Shown here in pieces: positions 1-61,722 of a stretch of DNA of 64,000 nucleotides (positions within the stretch are counted from its first letter, which is position 1; each line of letters opens with the position of its first letter). Source of the DNA: Terriglobia bacterium (GTDB taxonomy: Bacteria > Acidobacteriota > Terriglobia > 20CM-2-55-15). The stretch covers positions 768,001-832,000 of the forward strand of contig CBDAOY010000005.1 in NCBI GenBank assembly GCA_965198225.1, read 5' to 3'. Both the position numbers and the translations under genes were made by a program. The notes below the pieces were generated by a model that saw nothing but the letters and a program-made list of their open reading frames with translations, searched no databases and was not told the origin of the DNA.

Positions 1-2812
<2,812 letters not shown>

Positions 2813-2957
2813 TGGTAAGGTCTTAGCGAGAGTAAGTGCTTCAGGGCCGCTGAAAAGCAGCTCACATTGGGCGCCGGGTCAGGAAATAACATGGTGCAAT
2901 TAATCCCATGTTCATAAACGGCTTGACTTCCCACTCCTAAAGGCACTGGTGAAGCCT

Positions 2958-3138: not shown

Positions 3139-3142
3139 TGAG

Positions 3143-3266
3143 CATGTCAGGTTGATGTATACCCTAAACTGATGTCAAGCAACCCCCCGAATCGCGTCGA
3201 ACTAGGCTCGTGTGTTGCATTGATTTACACGCCCCGCCCACGGTCTTAGATTCTTTATTGACAGAT
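3143..3266 (+). promoter_or_regulatory. Tn21/Tn1721-type res site
   Basis: GTCAGGTTGATGTATACCCTAAACTGATGTCA resembles res site I and lies directly upstream of tnpR. Confidence 0.75.
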
Positions 3267-3285
3267 TCGCAGCAGGAGGAACGCC

Positions 3286-5372: not shown

Positions 5373-5574
5373 GGCTTTTCATTCTCCCGTGTTCCCGGAC
5401 AAGGCAGGGGAACCACGGGCGTCTATTCCCGGACCCCGAGCGGCAGCCGTGCGAAAAATTACTCTAAGGGTCCGTGTGTGACCCTCCTGGAGTAATTCCC
5501 GCCACCGCTTCCGCTATATGAGAAGCGCCAGTTCTGCGGGGTGTCCAACGTCAATCAAAATTCCCGCCCCTAAC

Positions 5575-42479: not shown

Positions 42480-42697
42480 GGGCCATCGCCGTCTATCTCC
42501 GGGTATCCACGAGCCGCCAAAACCTCCGATTCTCAGGAGCCCGAACTCCAGACTTGGCTTCAGACCAACGCCGGCAGCGCTCTACGGCCACCTCAACCCC
42601 TACGGGAAGTACCCGCTTCGACTTGGACGAGGACCTCCACGGAGCCGCATTGAGACCGCTAAGGACACAAGGCGACGCCCCTTAGCGTTGGATTTTG
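42480..42697 (+). pseudogene. Collapsed Tn3 remnant: resolvase N-terminal fragment, TnpA C-terminus, inner 17 bp of the TIR
   Basis: AVYLRVST; HLNPYGKY/RFDL..LRPLR..P* with the stop inside CTTAGCG. Confidence 0.75.
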
Positions 42698-43188
42698 GTG
42701 CGCCGTGAAAGGCGCCATTCCCCAGCGGGTGCGAACCCCGCCCGGCAACTGTCGCTCCAGCCGGTAGCAGTCGGAGCGGACGATGGAGGTAACGACATCG
42801 GCTGAAGCACTCCGATGACAAAGGGCCGCCCTGGGCGGTTCAGCGACCACGCGGGCCGCAACGATGTGAACGCTGCGCAGGCCTCGTAACGAAGCGATGC
42901 GGAAGCCGATCCGCCCGGAATACGGGGAAGGCTGCCAGCGGTCGGGAAGCGAGCGACGCGAGCACCGACCGGTTCCGCCGGGGTAGTAGCGGCGGCACGT
43001 GTGGAAGGGGGGGATGGACGCAACACGGGAAGCCCTGCCGGTGGCGTGGCATGCGCCAACCGACAGCCCGCGAGGGTCAGGTTGGGCCGACAGGGTGGCG
43101 GAGAGGTCCGCAGTACCAGGGAAGCCGGGTAATGCCGGTGGAGGGAAGGGACCTCAGTTCGAGAGCAGCGCATGACGGAGGAAGGGAC

Positions 43189-44415
43189 ATGAGGACTGGC
43201 GAGAGCCTAACAGCCTCGGAGAGAGTTCAGCGACTCCAGACGGCGCTACATGCGAAAGCGAAGGAAGCTCTGGGCTTCCGGTTCTACTCTCTGAGCGACA
43301 AGGTGTGGCGCGACGACGTGCTCGCAGTCGCCTGGCAGGCCGTGCGCCGCAACGGCGGCGCGGCCGGGGTGGACGGCGAGACGGTCGGAGACATCGAGGC
43401 GCTTGGGGTAGACCGGTGGCTGGGAGCACTGGCGCGGGACCTGAAGGAAGGGACCTATCGGCCGCATGCGGTTCGGCAGGTTCTCATCCGAATGCCGAAG
43501 AAGCAACGAGGGAAGTTCCGGCCGTTGGGCATTCCGTGTCTCCGGGATCGGGTGGTGCAGACGGCGGCGATGCTGGTGTTATCGCCGATCTTCGAAGCCG
43601 ACCTGCAACCGGAGCAGTATGCGTACCGGCCGGGCCGAGACGCGCATGATCGCAGGACGGGCCACCGGCGATCTGGTGTTACGCGCGTGCCATCGGCTGC
43701 TGAGGACGGGCCACCGGGAGGTGGTGGACGCCGCCGCACGAACCGGGCGCGTCACGAGCGGAAGGGGACCCCGCAAGGGTCTCCGATCTCGCCGCTGTTC
43801 AGCAACATCTACATGCGGCGCTTCATTCTGGGCTGGAAGGTGCTGGGCTACGCCCGGCACTTCAAGGCGGAAATCGTCAACTACGCGGATGACTTCGCGG
43901 TTCTCTGTCGCGCGCCGGCAGCGGTAATGCTAGCGGCGGTCGAAGCCCTGATGAAACGTCTGAAGTTGGCGATGAACGTTGAGAAGACCCGCTGCTGCCG
44001 GGTGCCGGAGGAATCGATGACGTTCCTCGGCTACCGGATTGGTTGCAACTACCGGCCGGACACGGGTACCGCCTACATAGGCACACGTCCGAGCCGGGAA
44101 AGCGTCCAGAGCATCTGCCGTCGTGTGAGCGAGTTGACCACGCCGCGTCACGCGCTCCTGCCGCCGGAGGTCGTAGTGGGACGCCTCAACCGGTTGCTGA
44201 CCGGTTGGGCGAACTACTTCACCCTGGGACAGGTCAGCCCGGCCTACGAGGCGATTGACCGGCACGCAACTCGGCGGCTGCGCCAGTGGCTCTGCCGTAA
44301 GCACAAGGTGCGGACCGGGAAACACGTGCGCTTCCCGGTCGAGCGGCTCTGGTCCGATTACGGGCTCACGCATCTTGCGCCGCGTACGGCGAGCTTTCCG
44401 TGGGCGAAGGCATGA
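43189..44415 (+). pseudogene. Intron A reverse transcriptase/maturase, internally deleted
   Basis: RPLGIP, GTPQGSPISPL, YADD, GWANYF; the RT3-RT4 region is largely missing. Confidence 0.85.
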
Positions 44416-44867
44416 TCTCGTCCGAGAGCCGGATGCGGGAAATCTGCATGTCCGGTTCGATGAGCGTTGCGCCTTGCAAGCGCATGAGATCCAGTCGCCT
44501 GAGATGGCGGCCGTGGCAGAGCCTAGCCGGCAGCCACGTACCGAGTCTTGCGTGGTGGTCGGTGACGGACACTGCGAAGCGTAGACAGGGAGGGAGTAGG
44601 CCGGAACACCAGTGAACGGAAAGATAGCCCCGAAATCGAACGTGGTTGAAGTAGCCGACCCTGTCGCTCTAGGGGGAAGGCGGAATCGCAGGGCACGCAA
44701 TGGCAAGTGCCCTGGGGTGCTTCCGGGGTTCGTACCGCCGGCATGCAACCAAGGATTTCATGGGAACAAGGGAGATCCGTCAGGTTCAAGCGGAGCTTGT
44801 AGGGTTGGACAAGCCAACAACGCGAGGAAGACCCGAAGGCCTGTCGGAAGTCAGACTGGCTGATAGT

Positions 44868-46096
44868 GCGTGCCTGGCAGCACGCGTTTCCGGCGGGTTA
44901 AAGTCCCGCTCGGCCCGAGGCCACGGGTCGATATCCAACAAGTGGGGGTAATGCCTCACTGGCCGAAGTGTAGACAGGTAGTGCAGATGCCTAAACGGGC
45001 ACGAAGGCGAAAGCCGGATACGGCCAAGGCAAAGCTGGAGCCAGCTACGGAAACTTTGGAGGGCAGGGCGCCCACCGCGAGGTGGGGTCTGAAGGGCATG
45101 AGGAGAACCACCGGGTCGTAATCGACGGGAGCCATCCCGAGGATGAACCGGTCGGCCAAAGATGGGGAATGGTCGAGCCCGCACTATTGGGGCGAAGGCG
45201 CATTGGTTCCACCCCATCGCACCAAGGTGTGTGCGGGCGACACGGTGGAGAAGAGACGCGAGTGACCCAGGGAGGCCTGGTATCGTCCGAGCGGAAGGTA
45301 AGGTCGAGATGATGTGGCACCCGCAGACGAAAGGGCGGGCAACCGAGAAGACAAACATCGACCTAGAGCCCTGCGCGGTAGGTGCGGATATAAGCGAGAG
45401 CGAAATTCCGGCCGACGCGGTGTCAGGAATCGGATCGGGGAATAGTACTCAGGAACGAGACGGCAAACATAAGGTCTCGGATCGTTGCTTCGAGCAGCGG
45501 CGCTGGCGGGTCCAAAAGGCCCGTTGGAGGGGGAAGTCCCCGTACTCAGTCGTGAATGTGCGAGCGATGGGAAACGCGGAGATATCGTGAACTTGGATAG
45601 TTCCCTTAGCGAAAGACCCAAACGCGGTACGAACGAAGCCGCCACCTGCCGCCACACAGCGAATTCCGAACGAGGAGCAACTGAGGAAAGCGGCTTGCGG
45701 GAAAACCGCACGAGCCGTTTGATTGAGCGGACGGTGGAAGGGCCGATCGGCCCGACCACTTTCGACTCTACACTCAGGAACGAGACGGCAAACATAAGGT
45801 CTCGGATCGTTGCTTCGAGCAGCGGCGCTGGCGGGTCCAAAAGGCCCGTTGGAGGGGGAAGTCCCCGTACTCAGTCGTGAATGTGCGAGCGATGGGAAAC
45901 GCGGAGATATCGTGAACTTGGATAGTTCCCTTAGCGAAAGACCCAAACGCGGTACGAACGAAGCCGCCACCTGCCGCCACACAGCGAATTCCGAACGAGG
46001 AGCAACTGAGGAAAGCGGCTTGCGGGAAAACCGCACGAGCCGTTTGATTGAGCGGACGGTGGAAGGGCCGATCGGCCCGACCACTTTCGACTCTAC
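44868..46096 (+). ncRNA. ORF-less group II intron C (904 nt, 44868-45771) plus a tandem copy of its 3' 325 nt
   Basis: DV AAAGCGGCTTGCGGGAAAACCGCACGAGCCGTTT, end GACTCTAC, EBS1 ACTATT at 45183-45188; 45447-45771 equals 45772-46096. Confidence 0.85.
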
Positions 46097-46222
46097 ACTC
46101 CGAGGTCGGGAGAGCCGATCACATGGGGAAGCGGCCAGCAGAAGTGGACTCGTTCTTGGGAAACATGAGCTCCATGCAACGGGAGGATACGGTCCTCTAT
46201 GCAACGAGAGGAACAACCAGTC

Positions 46223-47545
46223 ATGGAAACGAAACTGGAACGAATAGCGGCGAAAGCTCGGAGTGAGCCAAAGCTCCGGTTCACGTCACTGGCGCATCAT
46301 GTCACCCGAGAGCGTGTGTGGAAGAACCTGTGTCAAGTGCCCCGCAACACGGCTCCCGGATGTGATGGTCAGAGGGTACCGGAGGCGAAGGAGGAATTCG
46401 GAGTCTGGGTGGAGCCAATGCTCCAGTCTGTTCACCAGAAGGGATATCGCGCTCCGCCGATTCGGCGGGTGTATATCCCCAAGCCCGGCAAGCAGGAGAA
46501 ACGTCCCCTGGGCGTGCCCTGTGTTCAAGATCGGGCCCTTCAGCGCAGCGTGGCCGAGGTATTGGTCGCCATCTACGAGCAGGACTTCTTGCCCTGTTCC
46601 TTTGGTGGCCGGCCTGGGCTGGGCGCCCACAATGCACTGGCAACCCTCCATGAGGTGATTTCCGGATGCAAGGTGAGTTGGGTGTTGGAGGCGGACTTGA
46701 AGAACTTTTTCGGGAGTTTAGACCATGGATGGCTACTCCGCTTTGTGGAGCATCGAGTCGGAGATCCGCGGATCATCAGTCTGATACGACGATGGTTAAA
46801 GGCGGGCGTTTTCGAAGACGGGGAATTGCATTCGAACGAAGAGGGAACCCCGCAAGGTGGGTCGATCAGCGTTCTGCTGAGCAATCTGTACCTGCATTAT
46901 GTGCTTGACCTGTGGTTTGACCGGATGGTCCGGCCACGCCTGAAGGGTGAAGCGTATCTGGTGCGGTACATCGACGACTTTGTCGTGTGTTTCCAATATC
47001 GGGACGATGCGCTTCGTTTCCAGAACGTTCTGCGCAAGCGACTGGGAAAGTTTGGACTGGTTCCGGAGCCGACCAAGACGAAGCTCGTCGAATTCGGCCG
47101 CTATGCCCAGCGCGATGTCGTCCGGCGCGGGAGAAAACGTCCAGAGACGATCTATTTTCTGGGCATGACCCTGTACTGTACGCGTAATCGCAAAGGCAAT
47201 TTTAGAGTGGGACTGCGAACAGAGAAGTCTCGACTTCGACGCAGTCTGGCTCATCTACGCGGCGTGATGAGGCGAATGCGTCACTTGCCGGTCCGGGAGC
47301 AAGTGCACAATCTGAACCGAGTCTTGCGCGGGCACTACGCCTACTATGGCATTGCCGGGAACCTCCGGGCTCTGCAGCACGTCGCTCGGGCCGTGGAACG
47401 TTACTGGCGCCAAATGCTCAGCAGTCGTAGTCGTGCAGGCTTCGTCCGGTGGGAAGTATTCAACCGGATTCAGCTGCACTTTCCGTTACAGCGTCCCAAG
47501 TTGGCTCTCCGCTATCGGGAGTTCCAGTCTCTCGCTGTGCTGTAA
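46223..47545 (+). CDS. ltrA: Intron B reverse transcriptase/maturase (no En domain)
   Basis: YIPKPG..RPLGVP, EADLKNFF, GTPQGG, RYIDDF, RGHYAYY. Confidence 0.93.
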   Translation: METKLERIAAKARSEPKLRFTSLAHHVTRERVWKNLCQVPRNTAPGCDGQRVPEAKEEFGVWVEPMLQSVHQKGYRAPPIRRVYIPKPGKQEKRPLGVPCVQDRALQRSVAEVLVAIYEQDFLPCSFGGRPGLGAHNALATLHEVISGCKVSWVLEADLKNFFGSLDHGWLLRFVEHRVGDPRIISLIRRWLKAGVFEDGELHSNEEGTPQGGSISVLLSNLYLHYVLDLWFDRMVRPRLKGEAYLVRYIDDFVVCFQYRDDALRFQNVLRKRLGKFGLVPEPTKTKLVEFGRYAQRDVVRRGRKRPETIYFLGMTLYCTRNRKGNFRVGLRTEKSRLRRSLAHLRGVMRRMRHLPVREQVHNLNRVLRGHYAYYGIAGNLRALQHVARAVERYWRQMLSSRSRAGFVRWEVFNRIQLHFPLQRPKLALRYREFQSLAVL

Positions 47546-47631
47546 ATCCAATTCTGAAGAGCGCAGTGCGGGAAATCCGCACGCTGCGTTCTGTGGGAGC
47601 CGGAGGCGGGCAACTGCCTCCGGCCACCCGG

Positions 47632-49038
47632 GCGGATTCGGGCGCCGATTTTGAGAAGCTTCAGACGGATGGTCCCGCACTGGGCATGGGCCATCGCGGT
47701 ATCTTTGAGCCCGAGGCGTCGCAGGGCATGCATGAGCATGTACGCAGCTGAGGAGAGATAGAGCCGGAGCTGATTGGCGCGCATGGTCGCCGCGCTGGTC
47801 CGGTCCGCAAATAGGTCCAACTGCTGTTCCTTGATACGGTTCTCCATGTCGCCCCGCGCGCAGTAGAAGTCCTCATACAAAGCGCGGGCTTGGAAGCGTT
47901 CCGGCGGCAGGGAGGTCACGATGAATCGGGGATTGGCGCCCTTGTCCAGGAACTCCGCCTTGCCGACGACGCGTCGCGCGCGGGTCCAGCTGTTTAGAGT
48001 CCGGTACTGGAAATCCTTAAACACCCGCGCCGGTTTCCCGGTGGCGTTAAACTCCGCTTCCGCCTGAACCATTTCTTCAGCGATTTCTTGCTTGAGACGA
48101 CTGTTCTTGGCCAACCCGATCACATAATCGACCGGATGGGATTCACACCAGGCGAGCAGTTCATCCCTGCAAAAGCCCGAGTCGGCCCGGATGATGATCG
48201 ATACTGTGGGCCACACCTGTCGGATCTGACCGACGATGCGCTCTAACTCATCCACCGCTCCGTCGGCCCCGTCAATGTTGGAACGCCGGAGCCGGGCGCA
48301 CAGCAGATGTTCTCCCGAGAAGATGTACAACGGCAGGTAGCAGTAGTTGCCGTAGTAGCCGTGAAAGAACCGTCCTTCCTGGTTGCCATGGATCGTATCG
48401 TCGGTGGCATCCAGGTCCAGAACGATCTCAGAGGGCTCCGATTCGTGGGCCGCGATAAACGCGTCGACCATCCACCGGTCGATCTTGTCGCCATCCATGG
48501 CGATCTTCTTGTACCGCTCCTGGCCATCGACCTGCTCTGCGGTCAGTTCCAACCGGTTCAGCGTGCACTTGCCTGCCAACGCCTTTCCCCGGTCTCCGGC
48601 CTGCCGCCGGTTTTTTCCCAGTGGATCGGCCTTCTCCACCGCCACGGCCAGCATCGGATCGGTCCGTAGCTGGTCGTGGTCGTTCAGGTCCTCATAGCCC
48701 AAGCACAGTCCATAAATCCGCTGGCCCAACAACTCCTTCACGCTGTGTTCGATCAACCTCGGGTCCCGGTGATCGGTAAAACACTGCTCCAGTCCGGCGA
48801 TCAAACCCGTCCGCTTCTCGACTTCCCTCAACAGCAGAACACCCGCGTCGGAGGTGATCTTTCCGCCGTCGAATCGCGCCTTCACTTTCCGTTGAAAAAG
48901 TCCGTGAAATTCGAACGTGGCTTGCTTACACTCTGTTCTCATAAGGGCCGTCTCCGTTTGGGTTTTTAAACGTTTCTCGTCAAACGCTTTATGCCAAACA
49001 GGGCGGCCTTTTCTGGTCCTATCCGTGAAATATAGGGG
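47632..49038 (-). mobile_element. IS1380-family element, 3'-truncated (transposase from 48942)
   Basis: FDGGKITSDAG, LDLDATDD, RADSGF, RGDMENRIKE; left end CCCCTATATTTCACGGAT. Confidence 0.9.
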
Positions 49039-50769
49039 CTAGCCGGCAGCCACGTACCGAGTCTTGCGTGGTGGTCGGTGACGGACACTGCGAAGCGTAG
49101 ACAGGGAGGGAGTAGGCCGGAACACCAGTGAACGGAAAGATAGCCCCGAAATCGAACGTGGTTGAAGTAGCCGACCCTGTCGCTCTAGGGGGAAGGCGGA
49201 CACTCCGAGGTCGGGAGAGCCGATCACATGGGGAAGCGGCCAGCAGAAGTCGACTTCGGATCTTGGGACTCCCGAGCTCAATGCATTCCGGGACACGGGT
49301 CTATGCAACGAGTCGGCTACAACGTCCAGATCGCTGAAACGACACTGAGCACGAACCTGATCGCCGAACAGCAGGTCGGAGTGAGCCAAGGTCTCCGGTT
49401 CTCGGTCACTGCTCGCATCATGTCACGGCGACAGCGGTCGTGGAAGAACCTGTGGCAAGTGCGACGCAGATCGACGGTCGCGGATGTGATGGCTCTACAA
49501 GTATCGAAGACGATTGAGGACTTCGAAGCCGCCGTGGAGCCAATGCTCCTAGTCTGTTCCAGAAGCCCGATATCGGCGCACGGCCAGATTCGGCGGGTGT
49601 ATATCCCCAAGCCCGGCAAGCAGGAGAAACGTCCCCTGGGCGTGCCCTGTGTTCAGCGATCGGGCCCTTCATCGCGCAGCGTGGCCGAGGTATTGGTCGC
49701 GCATCTACGAGCACGTACTTCTTGTCAGTTACTTTGGTGGCCGGCCTGGGCTGGGCGCCCGCAATGCAGAGGCTGCGGTCATGACGCGATTTCCGGATGT
49801 ACCAAGAACACCTATCGGCGCATGGACGCGACTTCGAAGAACTTTTTCGGAAGTTTAGACGATGGATGGCTACTCCGCTTTGTGGAGCATCGAGTCGGAG
49901 ATCCGCGGATCATCAGTCTGATACGACGATGGTTAAAGGCGGGCGTTTTCGAAGACGGGGAATTGCATTCGAACGAAGAGGGAACCCCGCAAGGTGGGTC
50001 GATCAGCGTTCTGCTGAGCAATCTGTACCTGCATTATGTGCTTGACCTGTGGTTTGACCGGATGGTCCGGCCACGCCTGAAGGGTGAAGCGTATCTGGTG
50101 CGGTACATCGACGACTTTGTCGTGTGTTTCCAATATCGGGACGATGCGCTTCGTTTCCAGAACGTTCTGCGCAAGCGACTGGGAAAGTTTGGACTGGTTC
50201 CGGAGCCGACCAAGACGAAGCTCGTCGAATTCGGCCGCTATGCCCAGCGCGATGTCGTCCGGCGCGGGAGAAAACGTCCAGAGACGATCTATTTTCTGGG
50301 CATGACCCTGTACTGTACGCGTAATCGCAAAGGCAATTTTAGAGTGGGACTGCGAACAGAGAAGTCTCGACTTCGACGCAGTCTGGCTCATCTACGCGGC
50401 GTGATGAGGCGAATGCGTCACTTGCCGGTCCGGGAGCAAGTGCACAATCTGAACCGAGTCTTGCGCGGGCACTACGCCTACTATGGCATTGCCGGGAACC
50501 TCCGGGCTCTGCAGCACGTCGCTCGGGCCGTGGAACGTTACTGGCGCCAAATGCTCAGCAGTCGTAGTCGTGCAGGCTTCGTCCGGTGGGAAGTATTCAA
50601 CCGGATTCAGCTGCACTTTCCGTTACAGCGTCCCAAGTTGGCTCTCCGCTATCGGGAGTTCCAGTCTCTCGCTGTGCTGTAAATCCAATTCTGAAGAGCG
50701 CAGTGCGGGAAATCCGCACGCTGCGTTCTGTGGGAGCCGGAGGCGGGCAACTGCCTCCGGCCACCCGGT
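49039..50769 (+). mobile_element. Group II intron B copy 2: 5'-clipped, domain I-III deletion, RT with a scrambled 5' part
   Basis: 49039-49200 matches 44523-44684; from about 49862 identical to copy 1. Confidence 0.85.
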
Positions 50770-51037
50770 GCGACTGGAAACGAAGCCACGGCGAGGAGTG
50801 AGGCACCGGAATCGGCGAAAGCCACCGGCAACAGCTACCCCCTTTGCCTACCGCCACCGCGCCAGTCGTCGACTCTACCCCCCTGCCGGACTCGACCCCT
50901 TCCTACATCGAGGTGGAGCAGCCCCACAATAGCTTCAACGAGTTCGCCTGCGGCGCACTTGGAAAACCGCATCAGATTTTCTGGTTCCCCTCAGTTTCCA
51001 GCTGGAAGCTCAAGCCGCCGGGGGGGGAGCAACGCTG

Positions 51038-51391
51038 TTAATCCAGGAGCGTCGTCTGTTTCTTGGCCGCTGGCTGCGCATAGGTCAGTCCGAAGACGTT
51101 ATCCGTCAGCCATCGCCGGAATTCCTCGTTGTCTGTGAACTGCTTGAAGAGCTGCATGTCGTCGTTGAGCACGGCGGTCATCACGCGCCTCAGAGCTTCG
51201 TCATGTTCGATCCGGGCGTTCTGCCTGTCGGAGTTTTCCCTGGCGTTGCGGTAGGCAGTGTCCTCAGCAACCTTGGCCGGAATCTCCTCCGTAATGAGGC
51301 GGCGGACGCGGTCCTCGTCTTCCCAGGAGATATCCCTGAACTGGTCGTTGAAGGCCTTGAGGATGCTCGAGAGACGGTCGAGTTCAGGTTC
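51038..51391 (-). pseudogene. Type I restriction enzyme HsdR C-terminal fragment
   Basis: EPELDRLSSILKAFNDQF..NSDRQNARIEHDEAL..QLFKQFTDNEEFRRWL. Confidence 0.7.
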
Positions 51392-52663
51392 CGATCGCGG
51401 CGAACACGCATCCGGATCACGACACGATCGCGGCGTTTCGGAAGCGGTTTCTGAAGCAGTTGAAGCCGTTGTTCGTGCAGATTCTTCTGCTGGCGCGGAC
51501 GATGGGATTTTTGAAGCTGGGGAAGATCAGTCTGGATGGGAGCAAGGTCGAGGCGAATGCATCGAAACATAGCGCGTTGAGCTGGGGGCACGCGACGGAG
51601 TTGGAAGAAGAGTTGAAGGCCGAAGTCGCGCGCCTGATGGAGTTGGCGGCGGCGGCCGACGCGGAAGTGCCGGAGGGAATCGACATCCCGGCCGAACTGA
51701 AGCGGCGCGAGGACCGGCTGAAAGCGATCGCCGAGGCGAAAGCGAAGATCGAGGCGCGCGCTGCGGAACGCCATGCGGCCGAGCAGGCCGAGTAGGAGGC
51801 CAAGATGGCCCAACGCAAGGCCCGGGCCAAAGCGACCGGGAAACGGCCGGGAGGCAAGCCGCCGCAACCGCCCCAATCGGGCGTGCGCCCGAACGACCAG
51901 ATCAATCTGACCGACGAGGAATCGCGCATCATGCCGGCGGGCGGGAAGAGTTTCCAGCAAGCCTATAACGTGCAGGCGGGGGTCGACACCGAGACCCTGC
52001 TCATCGTCACCGAATCCGTCACAACGCACGCCAACGACAAACAGGAATCGAACCGGCGCTCGGGACTCTCGATGCACTGCCTCAACCGCTGGGAAAGGTC
52101 GAGGCGATACTGGTCGACAATGGCTACTACAGCGAAGGGAACGTGAAGGCGTGCGAAACGGCCGGCGTGATGCCCTACATCGCCATGGGCCGTGAGCGCC
52201 ATCATCCACCGGTGGAACAGCCTTGGACCGAACCGCCACCGCTGTCGCCCGACGCGAACCCGGTCGACGCCATGGCCCATCGGCTATCGACGATCGAGGG
52301 CCGGGCCGTTTACGCTCAGCGCAAATCCACGGTCGAGCCGGTGTTTGGAATCGTCAAATCCGTGCTGGGATTCCGGCAGTTTCACCTCAGGGGACTCGAC
52401 CCGGTATCCGGTGAATGGACGCTGGTCAGCATCGCCTGGAACCTGAAACGCCTGTTCAATCTCTCCGGGCAGGTCTCCTGCCCGACTGATCCCCGCTCCA
52501 GCCGCCCGTCCGGACGCCAAAAACGCGACTCCGGGCTCCTGCGTGGATCTCCGGCGTCCGAATCCGGCTCTCTCTTGCGACGTCTCAGGTCGATGGTCTC
52601 GTCAATGTTCAATCACACGCTCGGAGACGCGCCGTTGCTACGGTCAAGTCCGACAGGCTGCTA
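51392..52663 (+). pseudogene. IS1182-family transposase, 5'-truncated, with internal stop and frameshift
   Basis: PDHDTIAAFRKR, LDGSK, YNVQAGVD, RKSTVEPVFG; end GACAGGCTGCTAG. Confidence 0.85.
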
Positions 52664-52754
52664 GGGTAAAGTGTTTACCCAAGCAGGAGGGGTAAGGGGT
52701 AACAGCGGGTTACGAAGCGGGGTCCGACACATGGCGTATCCGTCGGTCGACGCA

Positions 52755-53516
52755 CTACCACTGGGCTGGATCCTGCCTGTAGAAACCTCGAAGTTGGTCG
52801 TAGAGTTCCTGGTGACGTCGACGTAATTCGCGGGGACGTTCGAAGAAGCATTCGGTCGCTACCGCAAAGAACTCCGAAGGGCTCTCGGCTCCGTAAGGGT
52901 CGAGTACACTCGGGCGGCCCAGGTCGGCGGCGTTCTGAAGTTCTCCGTATTCGTGCTCGAATACCCGCACCCATTCTCGCCACTTGTCGCGTCCTTCCAG
53001 AGGCGGGGTGCCGTCCCCCGCGCCGGATTCGTCGTCGAGTTGGTGAGCGAACTCGTGGAATACGACGTTTTCTCCTTCCGCAGGGTCATCCGCACCCCGC
53101 CGGACGTCCTTCCAAGAGAGAACCATGGAGCCCCGGTACCAGGATTCGCCTTCGCGCACTTCTGTGCCTTCTTCGACCAGGTAGTCTCCGTGGTGGCGTT
53201 CGCTTGGCGCTTGGTAGGCGTGCGGGTAAACGAGAATGCTTTCCAGTTGCGGGTAATAGTCGGTATTCCGGTGTAGCAGAAGGACCGAGGCATAGGCGGC
53301 GATCGTGACTCGTATGCGATCGTCGAGCTCCAGACCTCCGCAGCCTTCAAAGCGCTTTTCTTCGAGGAAGATCTGGATGTGCCCTCCCAGCTCGTCGCGA
53401 TCCTCTTCGGGAAGCCGCGAGTAGATCGGGAGCGCTTCAAGCACCGAACTCCAGGCCAAGGGAAACGGACTCGCCCGGATCCTCGCGCGCCGCTTATTTC
53501 GAAACCAGCCGAACAT
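52755..53516 (-). CDS. MtfA-like zinc peptidase (M90)
   Basis: NVVFHEFAHQLD, DPYGAESPSEFFAVATECFFERP. Confidence 0.9.
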   Translation of the reverse strand: MFGWFRNKRRARIRASPFPLAWSSVLEALPIYSRLPEEDRDELGGHIQIFLEEKRFEGCGGLELDDRIRVTIAAYASVLLLHRNTDYYPQLESILVYPHAYQAPSERHHGDYLVEEGTEVREGESWYRGSMVLSWKDVRRGADDPAEGENVVFHEFAHQLDDESGAGDGTPPLEGRDKWREWVRVFEHEYGELQNAADLGRPSVLDPYGAESPSEFFAVATECFFERPRELRRRHQELYDQLRGFYRQDPAQW

Positions 53517-53517
53517 A

Positions 53518-53721
53518 TCAATATATCTCCGGATAAATGTCGAAGAATGCTTCGAGACTTTGAGCGAGTTGCTTCTGGATACTGCTCGGGTCTCCGTTAA
53601 GCAAGTGCATGCTGACACGGGCAGTCTTCCCGTTTTTTAACTTAACAACCGCATCCTCGACAGCATCCAGATCCTCAGTTGGCAACAGCCGCAAACCATA
53701 GATCAAAGCCAAATCAGCCAT
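53518..53721 (-). CDS. Small hypothetical protein
   Basis: GAGGAGAAGG RBS; ends 1 nt before the peptidase start. Confidence 0.6.
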   Translation of the reverse strand: MADLALIYGLRLLPTEDLDAVEDAVVKLKNGKTARVSMHLLNGDPSSIQKQLAQSLEAFFDIYPEIY

Positions 53722-54105
53722 ACCTTCTCCTCAATTTCTGCCGACGGTCGCAACGCAATCGACACCCCACCGTCTGGGCTCAAAAAGGTTGTTTAGACTC
53801 GACGGACTTGGGCCTCAGTTCATGCGACCGTCAACATGTCGCCCATTGATGAAGTGGGTGCAGTGGACCGCAGCCATTGGATGCTCAATATGGCGGCCAA
53901 AGTGGTCTGGTTTGTCGCATAGCGGATGTTCCGGTTGATCGACCATATCGTGCGACCTCATTTGCTGGCAGTGAGGACGCCGTAAAACAGCTAGGAGCGC
54001 GTCGATCTATTAGACACTGGCAAGCGGCGCGTTCCAAGGATCTCACGTTTCCAACTTCATATCCCACGGGATTGCGGTCTGAATTGGGGGTAACATAAAG
54101 CGCCT

Positions 54106-56850
54106 ATGATCGCAGTCTTTCTTGCTCTCTTTGCCGGGCTCACAGTCCACCTGCCCCAGTCGGTCGCGGACCTGACGCTCGTCGTTGTCGACGATTCAGG
54201 GAAGGTTGTCTATAAACTTCCGGCGCCCGAACCCGGCGAATACAGCTTCGACCTTGCCGACGGCGCCTACACGATCCGCGCGATGGTTCGAGACACCGTC
54301 CTCGCGTCGGTTCCCGAGATCAAGGTTCCCGAGATCCTGTCGATCGAGGTGACCTTCCCGCAGGGCGCCGGAGCGGCCGAGGCTGCGAACCGGCCCGCTC
54401 CCACAGGTGCGCGTCGCAATCAGAACATCCAGGTCAACCTGGTCGACAACCAGGAGCTGACAGAGTCTCTCGGCCGGCAGGGAGCGCAGGTTTCCCCGAT
54501 CACGGAGTTCAGTGCGGCCCAGGGCAACTACGCCATCGAGCTGGGCGGCATCGGTCGCCAACCGCAGATACTGCGCGCCGCGAGGGCGAGCGGAATGCGC
54601 GGAGAATTCTACGGGACGCACAACAACAACATCCTGAACGCGCGGACGTTCTTCCAGGTGGGGGACGTCAAGCCGTCCCGGCGAAATCAATACGGTTTCC
54701 GCATCGGAGGGCCCCTGGGCTCGGACCGTCTCTCGTTCCTGCTGACGTTGGAGGAGACACGCGAGTCCGGCTTTGTGAACGGGAACGTTCTTGTGCCCAT
54801 GCCGGGCGACCGCACGGCCCTGGCCGAAGACCCGGCGATCCGCGCGCTCATACAGAGTTGGCTCGACGCCTATCCGGTGGAGGCGCCGAACCGGCCCGAG
54901 ATCGACCCGAACCTCCTGAACACCAATGCCCTTCAGGTCGTCCACAACACCGGGGGCTCGTTCCGGATGGACTGGGAAGCGGACCCGGGACGCCGCTTCT
55001 CGGCGCGGTACTCGCTGAACGACAACTTCATCGATTCCTTTGAGTTTGTTGTCGGCCAGAACCCGAATCAACGATTGAAGCCACAGACGGCGAGTTTGGC
55101 GTGGGAGGAGGCGCTTTCCCCCCAGACCACACTGCGGGTCGGCGTGAATTACGTCCGCGCCAACGTCGATGTCCTCGTGCCCCCGGGCTCGGTGGGTCAG
55201 TGGGTTCACTTCGGCCGGGACTTCGAGCATCTTGGCCCCTCATGGGATTTCCCAATTCACCGGGCCGACAACAGCTTCCAGTACCTTGTCGCCGGGGCCA
55301 CTAGTCTTGGCCGCCACCAGTTCGACTGGGGCGCCGAGGTCATCCGGACGCAGGCCAACGAGTTCCAGGCCGACGGATCGCGCGGGATGATGCAGTTCGG
55401 CAACAACTACGGCCGTTCTGCGATCGACAACTTCCGACACGGGGCGCCGTCGCGCTATTCGATCGTGATCGGCGAGCTCTACCGGGGGTTCCGGCGGTGG
55501 GATGTCCACGGGTACGTGAACGACCGGTTCGCGCTGACGCCGAACCTGACCGTGTCGCTCGGGCTGCGTTACGAGTTCGCGGGCAAGCCGACGGAAGTCA
55601 ACAACCTGACCGAGTTCCCCTACGATTCGGACGCGAACAACTTCGCCCCGCGAATCGGCCTGGCCTGGTCGCGCGCGCGGACGGTCGTCCGCGCAGGCTA
55701 CGGCATTGCTTACGGCAGGATATTTCCGGCCACGTACCGCGTCGGACGCCTCAACCCTCCGGCGGTCGTCCGGATCGACGCCAACTTCCCCGATCCGTCC
55801 ACCGCCGACGGCACCGGACCCAACCTGCTGGAGCCTCTGCGGGGTCTCGACGTGAGCGGGGCGAACGCGCGGTCCGCGCTCAATCTGCTCTACCCCGACC
55901 TGGTCACGCCCTACATGCAGCAGTACGCGCTGGAGATCGAACAGGAGCTGGCGGGCGATTTCAAAGTCACGGCGGCGTACGCCGGCAGCCGCATGTGGAA
56001 GCTGATCCGAAACACGCGCTCGAACCGCGCACGGCGCGTCGACGGCGTACCCACGAAAACCAGCACGATCAACCTCCGGCGCCCAGACTCCCGATTCCTC
56101 TCGGTCGGGCAGATGCGGAACGGCGCGCGCGCCTATTTCGATGCGGCGCAGCTGCGCTTCGAGAAGGTCATGGGGCAGGGCTTCTTCCGCGGGACGTACA
56201 CTTTCAGCAAGGCCCTCGATACCGGCGCCGATTTCTCCTCGACGGCTGTCGGGAAGGACGAACAGCGAGCCCAGATCGAGGCTCTGGCCGACATCGATCT
56301 GAAGCAGCACAGCCGCTTCGACGCTCCCCACGCGTTCACACTGGCATACGCCCATCGCCTGCCGCGCTGGCTCGGCGGCCTGACGCTGTCCGGCTCGACG
56401 ATCCTCAAGGACGGCACGCCGTTTAACGTCGAAACCGGGACCGACGCACCGCCGTTCGGCAACGCGGACGGCGAGCGGAGCGACCGCCCGTCGATCCTCG
56501 ATATCAGCATCCTGGGAGCGAGCGTCGACGATCCCGACACGGCGCTCAGCATCCTGCGCCGGGACGCCTTCGACGCGGAAGCCGGGTTCCGAGAAGGCCA
56601 CGGCAACTTGGCCCGGGGGGCGTTCCGGAAGGACGGGACAACGAACTTCAACGTCGGTGTGTCGCGCGCCTTCGCGCTTTCCTCCGATCAGACCCGGACG
56701 CTGCTCATCCGAACCGAGTTGATCAACGCGTTCAACCACCCGCAGTTCGACAGCCCGAACTCGAACCTCACCTCCCCGTCGTTCGGACAGATCACCAACA
56801 CACTGAACGACGGCCGGATCATCCAGGTCCACGTTCGCTTCAGTTTTTAG
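54106..56850 (+). CDS. TonB-dependent receptor (Oar-like)
   Basis: NARTFF, RNQYGF, FAPRIGLAW, NAFNHPQF, terminal RFSF. Confidence 0.9.
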   Translation: MIAVFLALFAGLTVHLPQSVADLTLVVVDDSGKVVYKLPAPEPGEYSFDLADGAYTIRAMVRDTVLASVPEIKVPEILSIEVTFPQGAGAAEAANRPAPTGARRNQNIQVNLVDNQELTESLGRQGAQVSPITEFSAAQGNYAIELGGIGRQPQILRAARASGMRGEFYGTHNNNILNARTFFQVGDVKPSRRNQYGFRIGGPLGSDRLSFLLTLEETRESGFVNGNVLVPMPGDRTALAEDPAIRALIQSWLDAYPVEAPNRPEIDPNLLNTNALQVVHNTGGSFRMDWEADPGRRFSARYSLNDNFIDSFEFVVGQNPNQRLKPQTASLAWEEALSPQTTLRVGVNYVRANVDVLVPPGSVGQWVHFGRDFEHLGPSWDFPIHRADNSFQYLVAGATSLGRHQFDWGAEVIRTQANEFQADGSRGMMQFGNNYGRSAIDNFRHGAPSRYSIVIGELYRGFRRWDVHGYVNDRFALTPNLTVSLGLRYEFAGKPTEVNNLTEFPYDSDANNFAPRIGLAWSRARTVVRAGYGIAYGRIFPATYRVGRLNPPAVVRIDANFPDPSTADGTGPNLLEPLRGLDVSGANARSALNLLYPDLVTPYMQQYALEIEQELAGDFKVTAAYAGSRMWKLIRNTRSNRARRVDGVPTKTSTINLRRPDSRFLSVGQMRNGARAYFDAAQLRFEKVMGQGFFRGTYTFSKALDTGADFSSTAVGKDEQRAQIEALADIDLKQHSRFDAPHAFTLAYAHRLPRWLGGLTLSGSTILKDGTPFNVETGTDAPPFGNADGERSDRPSILDISILGASVDDPDTALSILRRDAFDAEAGFREGHGNLARGAFRKDGTTNFNVGVSRAFALSSDQTRTLLIRTELINAFNHPQFDSPNSNLTSPSFGQITNTLNDGRIIQVHVRFSF

Positions 56851-57312
56851 GAACGCCGCTTCGTCCGCCGGAGCGAGCATCACCGTGACAGGTTCAGCGG
56901 AACCGCAGGCCAGGCCTCGTCGGGAACACTCACTTTTACCGATGCGTCCGGTCAACCGCTGGCTCTACCCATCACCCGAGCCCAACCCTGAGAGGCTAGG
57001 GCGTGTGTGGAACAACGGCCAGCGGATAGCCGTGGCCGGCCGGCAAGGCAGGGGTGCCCACTGGAGAAGCCGCAGTCAAGGCGGCGTGTTGTCGTTCTGG
57101 AGCCGGACAATAGTTACCTGAACCGCCCCGGGTTTTCCGGCGTACTGGTCGTAGAGAATGACGTTGTCCCATTCGATCGGGCTGACGTGCTGGAGCAGGG
57201 TTGCGTCAATGCCTTCCTTGGTGACAGCCCTCGTTCACACCGTCCGCGTGAGTTGCTTGGCTAGCCAATTGGCTTCGAGACGGAAAGAGCATGGCCAGGT
57301 GTCTACCTTTTC

Positions 57313-57936
57313 TTGGACGCCGCCTTGAAAACCGTCGCTTACCTCCGCGTCTCCACTCGTTCGCAGGACCTCGCCAACCAGAAGCTGGCGATCCTCGAGT
57401 TCAGCCAGAAACGCCGATTCCCGATCGACCAATTCATCGAGTCCCGGATCTCGTCGCGCAAGAGTCCGCTCGAGCGCCGCATTGACGAGATGTTGGGGAC
57501 GCTTCAGCCCGGCGACCGTCTGCTGGTCAGCGAGTTGTCGCGGCTCGGCCGCAGCCTCTCTCAGGTGATCCAGCTCGTGGAGACCCTGGTCCGGCGCAAG
57601 ATCCGCTTCATCGCCATCAAGGAGGCGATCGAGTTCGACGGCAAGCAGGACCTGCGGACTAAGGTGATGATCGCGCTGTTCGGATTGTTTGCCGAGGTCG
57701 AGCGGGACCTGATCTCAGAACGGACCAAGGAAGGACTCGCCTCTGCCAAAGCCAAGGGGAAACGGCTCGGCCGACCCAAGGGGGCCTTGGGAACATCCAG
57801 GCTCGACGGCAAGGAGCAAGACATCCGGGCGCTGTTGGGCAAGGATGTCTCCAAGGCCTCGATCGCCAAGATCCTGAACGTCTCCCGCTCCGCCCTCTAC
57901 CACTTTATCGAGACCCGCAAGATCGCTCCGGGCTGA
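57313..57936 (+). CDS. Serine recombinase/resolvase
   Basis: YLRVST, SELSRLGRS, AEVERDLISERTKEG, C-terminal HTH. Confidence 0.9.
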   Translation: MDAALKTVAYLRVSTRSQDLANQKLAILEFSQKRRFPIDQFIESRISSRKSPLERRIDEMLGTLQPGDRLLVSELSRLGRSLSQVIQLVETLVRRKIRFIAIKEAIEFDGKQDLRTKVMIALFGLFAEVERDLISERTKEGLASAKAKGKRLGRPKGALGTSRLDGKEQDIRALLGKDVSKASIAKILNVSRSALYHFIETRKIAPG

Positions 57937-57973
57937 CCCCAAGGCTCGGACCGCACTTATGTTGTATTTCAAC

Positions 57974-58166
57974 GTGCACCGTGAGAAGGCGCCAATCCTC
58001 AGCGGGTGCGAATCCCGCCCGGCAACTGTCGCTCCAGTCGGTAGCAATCGGAGCGGATGGTGGAGGTAACAACATCGTCTGAAGCACTCCGATGACAAAG
58101 GGCCGCCTCGGGCGGCTCAGCGACCACACAGGCCACAACGCGAGTAAACGCCGAGCAGGCCTCGTA
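57974..58166 (+). mobile_element. 5' fragment of a group II intron related to intron A (intron D)
   Basis: Collinear with 42698-42888; broken by IS1111. Confidence 0.85.
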
Positions 58167-59304
58167 TGTGGACGCCCCCCTGGTTGGCAAGCCTGACTTC
58201 GAACCGAGGATCGGTGGCATTCAGGTCAGGTACGGTCGTATGTGCGGCCTCTTGATGCGGCACTTGCTGGCCGCGGGCCCGTATGGTGTTCGTGAGATCG
58301 GATCCAAATCGAAACGACGGGCTCGATGGCCCTTCGAGGCCTACTGGTTTTTCCGATCCCGTCTTGTCGACCGTTTGCCCCTACCTTGTCCGACGTCCTG
58401 CTTGCACTCTCCAGTTGGAACCTCCGTGGCCCGTGTCCATCCGCCCAGGCTGCCAGCCGAACGAGTTCCTCTCTCTTCTCCGCGTTTCTGATCTCGCCGA
58501 CCCTTCTTCGCTCCACTGATCTGACTCGCAACCCTACGCTGTAGCCGCAACGGCCTTTGTCATTCCCCGTGCCCTGTAGCTCTCCACCTTCACCGTCATG
58601 GCCCAGATGATGCGTGCCATCCTGTTGGCCAGAGCCACCGCAACCACCTTCCTCGGCTTTTCGTCCAGCATCCGGCCAAGCCAGGGATCGGGGACCTCCC
58701 TCCGCCGGATGGCACTCGAGATGACCGCCGTCGCCCCCAGGCACAGGAGCCTCCGGATGTCGCGCTGTCCCATCTTTGTGATCCCCCCCAGCCGTTGGCG
58801 ACCACCCGTCGAGGATTCACGCGGCGTGATCCCGACCCATGCCGCAAAGTCACGTCCATTACGGAAGCTCTCCATTGGTGGCGCGAACGCGTGCACCGCC
58901 ATTGCCGTGAGCTCTCCCACCCCTGGGATCGTCATCAGGCGCCCGAGCGCCTCATCTTCCCTCACGATGTGCCGGATCTCCCGGTCCAGCTCATCGATCT
59001 CCGCATCCAGATCGTGGGTCCGCTCGATGAGGCGGCGTATAGCGGGAGGCACCAGCGCCGGGAAACACTCTTCACGCTCCGCGAACACCTCCTCCAGCCT
59101 CCCGACGTTGTGGGTCCCAAGCGGAGCGACGAGTCCGAACTCCGCGAGATGACCCCGCAGCGCGTTGATCGTCTGTGTCCGCTGGTGCACCAGCATTGCC
59201 CGGGCCCGGAACACCACCGATCGTGCCTGCTCCTCCTCGGTCTTCACGGCCACGAACCGCATCGTCGGCCGCTGGGCCGCCTCGACGATCGCTCCCGCGT
59301 CGTT
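58167..59304 (-). mobile_element. IS110/IS1111-family element, 5'-truncated (transposase to 58534; ~370-nt 3' non-coding region)
   Basis: LMTIPGVG, FAAWVGITP.ESSTGG, VAVALANRMAR; sub-terminal GGGGCGTCCACAT. Confidence 0.88.
58170..58530 (-). ncRNA. Putative IS1111 seekRNA/bridge RNA
   Basis: Guide-hairpin-guide loop at 58310-58342 matching both flanks of the target. Confidence 0.7.
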
Positions 59305-61722
59305 GGGGTCATCGCAAGGTTTGTACCTGAAATTACTCTAAGGGAGGATCTGGCGAATAATTGGACTGCGGAGCCTCGTTGATCAATCCGATCAGGATGC
59401 TGCGGCCCTCGTCGGTATGGAATGCCGCCCGGGCGGCGAGATCAATCGCCGTTCCCCTGTCGTCGGGCACGAAGGGCCGCAGCCCAAGGTGCCGGATGGC
59501 CAACTGCCTGTGGGACGAACGCGTCGCGTTCCGGGTGCCGTAACCAGCCAGGGCCGAGGTGACGAAGAAGCGCGATATGAATCGCCAATCCAAGCCGGTT
59601 TTCAGCGCTTCTCCGCGTGCAGATCAGATCCAGATCGTCATCGGCCAGAACGTAATTCCGTTCCAGCGAGGCGGTGTCGGAGAGAACCCCGAACAAGGTT
59701 TCGCGAACGGAGGCCGACACTAGATGTCGTGAAGCCATGGCATGTCCCAAAAATGCTGGGGTCTATTTTGAGACTGCCCATAATATAGAAACGAATAAAG
59801 AGACACTTCGAAAGCCCGGAATGGAGGTGAAATGGCCCATCCTGAAACCGTCCCTGAAACGAACCAGACTGTGTGAAAAGTCCAAGTCGTGGATCGCTGA
59901 TCCGGCAACACCGAAGGGCAAGCACGATGACGGACCCGTGGCGACGCAGATCACTCGGGGCTGCCAGCCTTTTCGGTGGCGTGAGGTGTTGCTGTGACTG
60001 GGAAACGCGGGATGGAGGCGGATTGTTGCGCCAAAAACAGGCGGATTACCCGGTCAAACCGCTGCGACGGCAATCAAGGCGGGAATTCCTACGAGGTTGA
60101 TTGCGCGGCGCATGTTGTAGGCCAAGGCGGTGAGGCTGAACTCCCCGCGGACATTGCCGAGTCGGCGCGTCAGGAACGCGCCTTGGCCCATCCACTGCTT
60201 GATCGAACCGAAGGGATGCTCGACCGACTCCCGGCGACGATCCATCACCTCGGGCCGGGCGGCGAGACGGTTCGCCATGCGCTCCATCGTTGCTTCGTTC
60301 TCGAAGCGCGTGATGCGCCGATAGGTGTTCTTGGTACATCGTTCGCGTAGACCGCAGCCTCTGCATGCGGCGCGGTTGGCGTAACTGACAAGATACGTGC
60401 CTGTGCGCGACTTACCGACGCTTCCGCGATACAACGGCACCAGGCGCTCACCAGCGGGGCACCGGTAGGTGTCCGTGGAGTCGTCGTATTGGAAATCGGA
60501 CTTCGGAAAGTGGCCACTGCGTCTGGCCGTGCTCCGGTCGGGCTTCGGAACGTAGGGCGTGATCCCGGCGGCTTCGCAGTCCTCAATGTCTTCGATCTTG
60601 TAGTAGCCTCGGTCCGCGACCGCGTCGATCTCGTCGACAGCCAAGTTCTCCCGAGCCGCTGTGGCCGTCTCCGCGAGCAGACCGAGGTCCGAGACCTTGC
60701 TATGGACCTGCTGTTCGGCGATCAGGTTGTGCTCAGTGTCGACAGCGATCTGGACGTTGTAGCCGACTCCGACCCGTGTCCCGGAATGCATTGACCGGGA
60801 GTCCGGATCCGTAAGCGACAGCTGGGCTTCTCCGGTATCGTCCAGCGTCTGCCGATGCCCCTCCAAGGTCTCCTTTCTCTTACGGATCGATGCGATCTTC
60901 TCCTGAAGATCCGCCACGGCAGCCGCTCTGCCGCCGGCATCATCCGCGTCGGCCTCGTTCACCTGGTCGAGGTAGCGGTCGAGTCGGTCGTCGATACGCT
61001 GCAGGTCCGTCTTCAGCTTGGCCCGCGTGAAGTTGCGGTCCCGGTGGTTCACCGCCTTGATGCGCGTGCCGTCCACGGCGATCAACTCCCGCCCGTACAG
61101 GTCGAGTTCCCGGCACAACCGCACGAACCGCCGAAACACCGCCCGGAACGCATGCCGATTGTCGCGCCGGAAGTCGGCGATCGTCTTGAAGTCGGGCTTC
61201 AGCTGGCGTAGCAGCCAGATCGCCTCGAGGTTGCGATGCGTCTCTGTCTCCAGCCTGCGGCTCGACCGAATACGATTCAGATACCCGTAGATATACAGCT
61301 TCAGCAGATCCGCGGGATCGTAGCCTGGACGGCCCTTGTCGTTGGGCCGAACGCGCTGGAATCCAGCCGCCTCAAGGTCGAGACCGTCGACGAATGCATC
61401 AATGAAACGGACCGGGTTGTCCGGTCCCACGTAGTCGTCCACAGTATCGGGCAGAAGCAGAAGCTGGGAACGGTCTTCACCGGTGATATGTGCCATGACA
61501 CATTTTACCAACCGCCATGGGGAACCTGATGCCAGTTCACCGACTCCCGCCCGGCTGTCGCCGACTTTTCACACAGTCTGGAACGTTAAAGAGACGGACG
61601 GCCCGGCCCGCAACGGTGACATCCTCGGTTATGCCCGGGTCTCGACTGCGGCACAGGATGCCGCCAGCCAGCAGGATCGGCTGCGGGAGGCCGGCGCCAT
61701 TCGCGTGTTCGTCGACGTGATT
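59305..61722. mobile_element. Tn3-family remnant: 38-bp TIR 59305-59342, tnpA N-terminal fragment (-, from ~59740), res region, tnpR N-terminal fragment (+, ~61610-61722)
   Basis: GGGGTCATCGCAAGGTTTGTACCTGAAATTACTCTAAG; RRSAENRLGLAIHIALLRH; GYARVST. Confidence 0.8.
59865..61580 (-). mobile_element. IS1182-family element, apparently intact (transposase 60054-61496)
   Basis: IRs CAGACTGTGTGAAAAGTC / GACTTTTCACACAGTCTG; GAAC duplication; VDGTRI, ADRGY, VEHPFG. Confidence 0.93.

Follow-up and report, generated by a model that had tools for sequence, protein, structure and literature searches.

We analyzed a 64,000-nt stretch of the Terriglobia bacterium contig CBDAOY010000005.1 (positions 768,001 to 832,000), which is called the window here. 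Coordinates are those of the window unless they carry a contig prefix (C4, C5, C6, or C8). The window contains a stack of group II introns and insertion sequences (ISs), in which the introns are named A, B, and C. Sequence comparison indicates that mobile group II introns and ISs occupy fixed sites inside one another in this genome and that base pairing specifies these sites. At least two of the intron lineages appear to be specialized, over many bacteria, as parasites of other selfish elements.

Introns and insertion sequences in the window

The genome comprises 6.4 Mb in 9 contigs. It contains many copies of each element, so the boundaries can be read by comparing filled with empty copies. 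All element boundaries given here were taken in this way. Public runs were used at the contig level, and two RNA runs and two DNA-type runs were compared with the window. Four metatranscriptome runs contain 41 to 44% of the sampled words.

Rfam identified 6 group II intron pieces at the gathering score, all on the plus strand and all between 42.7 and 58.2 kb. At E values of up to 1, it returned 11 matches in the window. D1D4-4 pieces (type A) lie at 42723-42866 and 58000-58143, and D1D4-6 pieces (type B) lie at 44502-44736 and 49013-49221. Domain V/VI matches lie at 47557-47633 and 50694-50769. The stretch 44424-44485 matched domain V (DV) at 39.3 bits, compared with the Rfam cutoff of 40 bits. 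Pfam identified open reading frames (ORFs) for reverse transcriptase (RT)/maturase proteins at 43051-44415, 46199-47545, and 49228-50682. It also identified genes for an IS1380-type transposase (47512-48942, minus strand), a resolvase (57313-57936), and an IS5/IS1182-type transposase (60054-61511, minus strand).

Intron A

The features that belong to intron A and its target repeats are as follows.

42681-42697, plus strand: the 17 innermost nt of a 38-bp terminal inverted repeat (TIR) of the Tn3 family, which form the 5' exon of A; the 17-mer recurs intron-free at three genome sites.
42698-44466, plus strand: intron A, 5' part, from domain I to DV (44426-44458) with an 8-nt linker; D1D4-4 at 80.9 bits, DV at 39.3 bits, Pfam, and fold.
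43051-44415, plus strand: RT/maturase ORF of A, with a deletion of about 135 bp; RVT_1 in two stretches and GIIM, and comparison with other copies.
50770-50876, plus strand: intron A, 3' part (domain VI region), ending in GACUCUAC; contiguous with 44466 in uninterrupted copies.
50877-50897, plus strand: outer half of a Tn3-type TIR, ending in GACCCC; of another sequence type than the usual partner of this inner half.
57313-57936, plus strand: resolvase gene left from a Tn3-family element, immediately upstream of the second TIR; PF00239, E value 2.5e-34.
57956-57973, plus strand: inner 18 nt of the second Tn3-type TIR, the 5' exon of a second A-type intron.
57974-58164, plus strand: second A-type intron, first 191 nt only; D1D4-4 at 82.8 bits.
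59305-59342, plus strand: intact 38-bp Tn3-type TIR (GGGG...TAAG) of another element, which marks where an IS110-type IS is cut off; copy at C5:619857.

A preliminary description of this DNA had placed intron A in a Tn3 TIR, and this placement is borne out by 38-bp repeats that are found intron-free elsewhere in the genome. At its three intron-free sites, the 17-mer of 42681-42697 is followed by 21 nt ending in CCCC. Together they form a 38-bp GGGG...TAAG repeat. The genome contains seven intron-free Tn3-type repeats (three with the window 17-mer and four variants of the same build). One variant lies directly past a DDE_Tnp_Tn3 match at C5:523835-524833. No intact transposase was found near the first repeat of the window. 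From the intron-free 38-bp copies, A inserts after position 17 from the inner end of the repeat.

The genome contains eight intact 5' junctions of A (six valid junctions from eight matches and two from the survey of repeats). They have seven different flanks, all of them TIR-like. At the 3' end, 8 of 11 junctions have CCC(C) within 18 to 21 nt downstream. Uninterrupted copies of A were found at C6:5959-7952 and C5:743295-744856. Whole RT ORFs of A, with RVT_1 and GIIM, were found at three other loci of the genome.

The exon-binding site 1 (EBS1) of A differs between targets; with an exon that ends in UUCAAC, it is GUUGAA. The candidate EBS1 of the window copy is CGGAAU (near 42918-42923), and its exon ends in AUUUUG. 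This copy falls outside the covariation pattern. Among relatives of A, 32 junctions were collected, 11 of them without a readable loop. They gave 18 distinct flank/loop pairs, of which 11 pair at 6/6 positions and 17 at 5/6 or better. When loops were shuffled among loci, none of 2,000 shuffles reached 11, and the maximum was 7. A would retrohome into the center of Tn3-family terminal repeats by pairing of EBS1 with intron-binding site 1 (IBS1).

The genome has 11 sites with the 3' segment of A (109 nt), 50770-50876 of the window among them, and all are 100% identical. One of these segments (C4:95723-95831) lies downstream of a B intron whose 5' flank is not A. The identical segments could reflect co-conversion of the 3' exon during B homing.

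The 38-bp repeat at 59305-59342 starts at the break point of the IS110-type element, so another Tn3-family element, or what is left of one, lies to its right. The IS5/IS1182-type IS at 60054-61511 lies inside that element or remnant.

Intron B

Two copies of intron B lie in the window, B1 and B2.

44467-44867, plus strand: B1, 5' part (B 1-399 and GT), starting with UUGCG; filled compared with uninterrupted A, and D1D4-6 at 137 bits.
46097-47631, plus strand: B1, 3' part with DV/DVI, last intron nucleotide missing; Intron_gpII at 46.5 bits.
46199-47545, plus strand: B1 RT/maturase, intact, 448 amino acids; Pfam RVT_1 at 1-205 and GIIM.
49039-50769, plus strand: B2, decayed, comprising B 57-218, one C nucleotide, and B 400-1935; D1D4-6 at 78 bits and DV/DVI at 47 bits.

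The insert in A spans 44467-50769 and is 6303 nt long. Compared with the uninterrupted A copies, it lies exactly 8 nt after DV of A (44466|50770), which agrees with the DV/DVI position described earlier. A circularly permuted intron was considered for the order of DV followed by domain I. It was rejected because uninterrupted A copies have their own DVI at the site and the hosts have their own D1D4 upstream.

Six 5' junctions of B were found in the genome (four in A and two in other flanks), and all end in ...GAGCG. By EBS1/IBS1 covariation, the EBS1 of B1 is CGCUC at about 44669-44673. In the species collection, 505 or more relatives of the B RT were found. They come from Terriglobia, other Acidobacteriota, and Alpha-, Beta-, Gamma-, and Deltaproteobacteria. 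The survey covered the best 80 of the 505, which are the closest relatives only and include nonindependent kin, and 64 were analyzable. The other 16 were dropped (7 without a 5' match, 8 too near a contig end, and 1 not aligned from position 1).

Of the 64 relatives, 52 have a bulged domain-V-like hairpin whose end lies 8 nt upstream of B, compared with 131 of 1,280 shuffled controls. The 5-nt loop at B 203-207 (EBS1) pairs 5/5 with the last 5 exon nucleotides in 49 of the 64 rows, 25 of them purely Watson-Crick. These rows include 21 distinct combinations of EBS1 and exon. The shuffle maximum was 25, and none of 2,000 shuffles reached 49. A host D1D4 of type -6, -3, or -4 lies upstream at 6 of the 10 B-lineage loci scanned with Rfam. 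The hairpin at -8, the EBS1 covariation, and the host D1D4 matches together place B in a lineage whose homing target is the DV/DVI junction of other introns.

The B lineage would retrohome 8 nt downstream of the DV hairpin of other group II introns. Recognition of the target would depend on 5-bp EBS1-IBS1 pairing and probably also on the hairpin, in the way that IIC introns recognize terminators. Among solved structures, the four best matches to the B RT are IIC RTs (E value 3e-36), marginally ahead of the IIA RT LtrA (3e-34).

At three loci in other genomes (L098, L067, and L056), the host D1D4 lies only about 600 to 750 nt upstream of the host DV. These host introns appear to be ORF-less.

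Intron C

Intron C and a fragment of it lie inside B1.

44868-45771, plus strand: intron C, ORF-less, a 904-nt net insertion in the putative domain III of B; empty sites, junctions, and folds.
45772-46096, plus strand: second copy of the last 325 nt of C, with the 5' part of this outer C missing; 100% tandem repeat.

C-less B sites are present in the genomes of four relatives and read ...GAUAGU|ACUC. The internal site of C itself is likewise empty, with ...GAUAGU|ACUC, in 14 of 15 matches, and the 15th match is unrelated sequence. From these empty B and C sites, C is a net insertion of 904 nt that starts with GCGUG and not one of 906 nt that starts with GUGCG.

The earlier claim that C lies in domain III of B and in C itself is upheld by junctions and empty sites, with the domain III placement putative. 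In the minimum free energy fold, the C site is the internal loop of a hairpin between the GUCAGA motif and domain IV. From this model we infer that the site is in domain III. A C-in-C nest has left the 325-nt repeat at 45772-46096 behind. The nest is complete at C6:840161-841975, where it has the form C(1-581)+C+C(582-906). It is also present at C8:158735-160383, where the inner copy has a deletion.

C has 20 5' junctions in the genome, and they lie in 10 contexts (6 at B399, 4 in C, and 10 in 8 others). In 6 of the 8 contexts outside B and C, an Rfam D1D4 match (types -6, -3, and -2) lies 90 to 290 nt upstream on the same strand. C also lies inside an A copy (C6:408324). A candidate EBS1 of C, ACUAUUGG at 45183-45190, can pair with CUGAUAGU. 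The match is 8 bp at the B site and a 5-bp core at the other sites. C has a canonical DV, and its DVI has a bulged A 7 nt from the 3' end (fold, z -5.5). Rfam gives C a weak D1D4-3 match (E value 0.23), and its DV/DVI are known from folding alone.

An RT-bearing parent of C was found at three loci, one of them partial. It carries a 1250-nt insert at C 797|800. The insert encodes a 425-amino-acid protein with RVT_1 and GIIM. C itself does not encode an RT, and it is an ORF-less deletion derivative of the full-length parent. The RT of the parent is the likely RT source, and C would probably be mobilized in trans. Its landing site would be (A/G)UAGU|AC, within the J2/3-domain III region, in five or more intron types, its own among them. 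Only B had been credited with an intact RT. This is correct inside the window, but intact A RTs and the RT-bearing parent of C occur at other loci of the genome.

Insertion sequences

ISs adjoin or interrupt the introns at the following positions.

58165-59312, minus strand: IS110/IS1111-type IS, 1146 of 1507 nt, with a guide RNA region.
58534-59262, minus strand: C-terminal part of the transposase of this IS.
58333-42 and 58309-16, minus strand: guide stretches of this IS.
47632-49042, minus strand: IS1380-like IS, left end truncated, right end at CTAG of B 57-60; PF13701, E value 3.7e-150.

A full-length copy of the 1507-bp IS encodes PF01548 and PF02371 (DEDD and Transposase_20). An IS1111 element had been described in an A-type intron, and all three copies do lie at the same A site, GGCCUCG|AAACGC. 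The 3' noncoding region contains two guide stretches with a small hairpin between them. In the fold, both stretches lie within an internal loop. Across the cut, one stretch (10 nt) has the same sequence as the top strand, and the other (8 nt) is complementary. None of 5,000 shuffles reached the 10+8 match, and 21 of 5,000 reached a looser 6+8 criterion. RNA guides had been reported as visible for both IS1111 and C. The IS1111 guide matches both target halves, but the C guide is plausible and lacks covariation.

A second IS110-type element (X) is 1451 bp long and encodes PF01548 and PF02371. It lies at A433 in two of its four copies. Its guide layout is that of the 1507-bp IS, and its 6+8 match was reached by 12 of 5,000 shuffles. 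Each of the two IS110-family elements would reach a fixed position in A through its own 3' guide RNA. The two X copies outside A (C5:838650-840100 and C4:355363-356813) lie in sequences whose likeness to the A site is limited to the core GAGCC(C)G|GGUAA(U/G)GC.

The IS1380-like element in the window is a truncated family member. It retains the DDE_Tnp_1_4 domain and lacks the left end. Other copies extend at least 40 nt further left, and loose ends in the public runs show the same continuation. The element had been described as an IS1380 in B. It does adjoin the second B copy, but it shows no intron specificity, as only one of the six copies examined lies in an intron.

State of the window stack

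The window stack is a decayed mosaic and is dead. B1 lacks its last nucleotide and abuts the truncated IS1380-like element. The intact right end of that element abuts B2 at B57. The two B copies are not nested in one another but lie side by side, joined via the left-truncated IS. B2 keeps one C nucleotide and lacks B219-399 (181 nt). The A RT has its deletion of about 135 bp, the N terminus of the B2 RT is scrambled, and the B1 RT is whole. Two A::B insertions in two repeats were most likely fused by a deletion that also truncated the IS1380-like element.

The N-terminal third of the B2 RT (49249-49842) contains stretches that are 71 to 78% identical to IS5/IS1182-type transposase genes, set among true RT motifs. 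A matching transposase example lies in the window at 60522-60819. Amino acids 6 to 199 of B2 matched amino acids 229 to 400 of the transposase by BLASTP, with 33% identity and an E value of 7e-11. The mosaic may have arisen by template switching of the RT onto a transposase transcript. A diversity-generating retroelement was rejected for this patch, which contains changes of all kinds, including indels.

Origin of the nest

The locus is very probably an accumulation of site-specific selfish elements, each of which landed in a conserved piece of another selfish element. The evidence consists of insertion positions, empty sites, covariation, and guide matches. RNA guides are visible for A, B, and the two IS110-type elements, and one is plausible for C. 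Retrohoming, the trans-mobilization of C, and hairpin recognition by B are proposed steps. The sites are constant over loci in this genome and recur in other genomes. The hierarchy of elements that target one another, as given in the preliminary description, stands as far as specific targeting is concerned, which is strongly supported and lineage-wide. The order is not strictly linear, because C occurs in A as well, and four or more further intron types also contain it. Mutual targeting would be explained most economically by selection for safe havens, as the sites are multicopy, mobile, and harmless to the host.

A wider proposal is possible, and we hold it tentatively, at somewhat less than an even chance. 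The B lineage would be a large, multiphylum group of obligate parasites of group II introns. It would target the DV hairpin plus 8 nt, and each insertion would keep the host ribozyme inactive for as long as the parasite is not spliced out. The B lineage, C, A, and the IS110 guides would make up a food web of selfish elements, RNA-guided and not described before, with the potential to restrain or regulate the spread of introns and transposons.

Several observations weigh against site-specific accumulation or narrow it. Mobility and splicing are deduced from sequence, and the history of two insertions and a deletion in the window stack is likewise a reconstruction. The hairpin test failed in 12 of the 64 B relatives, and 15 of the 64 rows lack 5/5 EBS1-exon pairing. 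The genome shows no clean covariation for the EBS1 of C. The distribution of its two loop variants, ACTATTGG and ACTATGGG, does not follow exon base -6, and pairing is therefore claimed for the 5-bp core only. Another genome (G027) contains C-like copies that are 94% identical, at 7 loci with ...GUAGU| sites, and their flanks gave no Rfam match. We therefore do not claim lineage-wide intron specificity for C, since these flanks contain no recognizable host intron. A donor-binding loop was not found in the 1507-bp IS; there was no match of 7 nt or more to the computed circle junction, for which the exact IS ends are uncertain. The two-element junction at 47631 is not bridged by the listed public contigs, and such a lack, like uncovered parts, proves nothing. 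Every B copy in the genome that retains the site carries C, and the 3' segments of B and A are 100% identical between loci. Many nests may therefore be copied composites and not separate hits.

Block copying of a composite (B with C, or A with B), at the DNA or RNA level, could in this way account for the recurrence of the nest. The identity covers B(400-1935) and A(1886-1994) at every full-length copy, except for the decayed B2 (91.5%). The C-in-C junction is identical at four loci, and the constant presence of C in site-retaining B copies points the same way. The B::C composite is also 100% identical in another genus (G020). Against this, B lies after at least 10 different DV sequences over genomes, with compensating EBS1 changes. 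C occurs in its 10 contexts in the genome, B occurs without C in four relatives, and A occurs without B at two loci. The varied contexts and empty sites show that block copying adds to site-specific insertion and cannot replace it. As the explanation of the nest, we consider it unlikely. The genome from the other genus contains, at G020:C24 (L022 and L044), B and a full C-in-C nest that are 99 to 100% identical to the window elements. This identity points to recent horizontal spread of the composite.

The preliminary description had proposed a programmed hyperparasite network. In such a network, each layer is expressed only after the inner layer is spliced out, and the nest is an ordered, regulated system. 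The insert positions would logically require ordered splicing, as B parts DV of A from DVI and C splits the putative domain III of B. Twintrons elsewhere splice inside-out (Zimmerly and Semper 2015, PMC4424553; Pfreundt and Hess 2015, PMC4649490). One RNA contig joins 44867 to B400, which gives B without C and with the GU kept, and this join is absent from the two DNA-type runs. The contig has a depth of 2 and a 30-nt side, however, and a genome of the same genus has the identical C-less B site in its DNA, which could explain it. The contig is therefore no proof of splicing. Another RNA contig joins 44466|50770, and the same form exists as DNA in the genome. The window stack cannot work as such a system, as the A RT carries a deletion, B1 lacks its 3' exon and last nucleotide, and B2 is short of 181 nt, with its RT scrambled. 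RTs can be made from unspliced precursors, so expression need not wait for splicing, and there is no sign of a host-level function. We regard a programmed network as improbable.

An assembly artifact of collapsed or chimeric repeats is very improbable: junctions 47631 (B1/IS) and 49039 (IS/B2) do join repeats and are unbridged by the listed contigs of the four public runs, but all other junction types recur at several loci of the 9-contig genome and in the separately assembled G020 and G024, and no common repeat able to cause a chimera lies at 47631.

Site-specific accumulation has a wider meaning. Nested introns have so far been treated as curiosities of a few genomes, and here they follow from target choices that hold throughout lineages and are legible in the base pairing. 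The addresses used are the catalytic hairpin of other introns (one family), the center of Tn3 ends (another family), and intron RNA genes (IS110 recombinases). They offer testable, programmable cases of selfish elements that find harmless landing sites and compete. The natural target rules could be tried for targetron or bridge-recombinase engineering.

Other repeats in the window

An inverted duplication lies within 1-34327, where 1489-5574 corresponds to 34073-29997 at 99.8% identity. A tandem array lies at 26941-29671. Its units are about 330 to 660 nt long and roughly 70 to 75% identical.

Comparison with known systems

Methanosarcina acetivorans contains up to five introns nested by repeated site-specific homing into introns (Dai and Zimmerly 2003, as described in Zimmerly and Semper 2015, PMC4424553). 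It resembles the present system in having ORF-less members, no host genes in the exons, and deletions that balance insertions. The homing sites in Methanosarcina are the ORFs of related introns, whereas those found here are in the ribozyme core (the DV/DVI linker and J2/3-domain III). The present system also departs from the Methanosarcina account in having hosts of several Rfam intron types and a transposon end as its outermost target.

Thermosynechococcus elongatus contains ORF-less introns that are mobilized in trans by a related RT (Mohr et al. 2010, PMC2882425). The same paper describes insertion at a conserved site in another intron or IS, for proliferation, as is proposed here. It also describes an active intron with a 5' U, like B (UUGCG), and an IS within an intron ORF. 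The site in T. elongatus lies between two start codons in domain IV and leaves the outer ribozyme intact, whereas the inserts here break the ribozyme.

Group IIC introns insert after terminator or attC hairpins (as described in Gomes et al. 2025, PMC12584367). B resembles them in three respects: a hairpin lies at a fixed distance upstream, EBS1 and IBS1 pair over 5 bp, and the RT has no endonuclease domain. It differs in that its hairpin is the domain V of another intron, and the close E values leave the class of its RT undecided.

The IS110/IS1111 family (bridge RNA/seekRNA) resembles the elements here. Shared features are DEDD and Transposase_20, subterminal inverted repeats, and one fixed target. 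Both also have a 3' noncoding RNA region with two guides that match the target halves around a shared core. What sets the present elements apart from the known IS110/IS1111 elements is that they are aimed at sequences within a group II intron ribozyme. Tn21-type TIRs, the same structure as the target of A here, are presumably the targets of the IS1111 relatives IS4321 and IS5075.

Nested homing, trans-mobilized ORF-less introns, homing into ISs (PMC4424553; PMC2882425), and RNA-guided IS110 elements are thus already known. Among the listings of full-text searches and the passages cited here, nothing was found on intron homing to Tn3 repeats, on a lineage homing to DV/DVI, or on intron-directed IS110 elements; such cases may already be described in Dai and Zimmerly 2003, Michel et al. 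2007, or Simon et al. 2008, or in supplements. Compared with these systems, the target choices of A, B, C, and the IS110 elements appear to be new variants.

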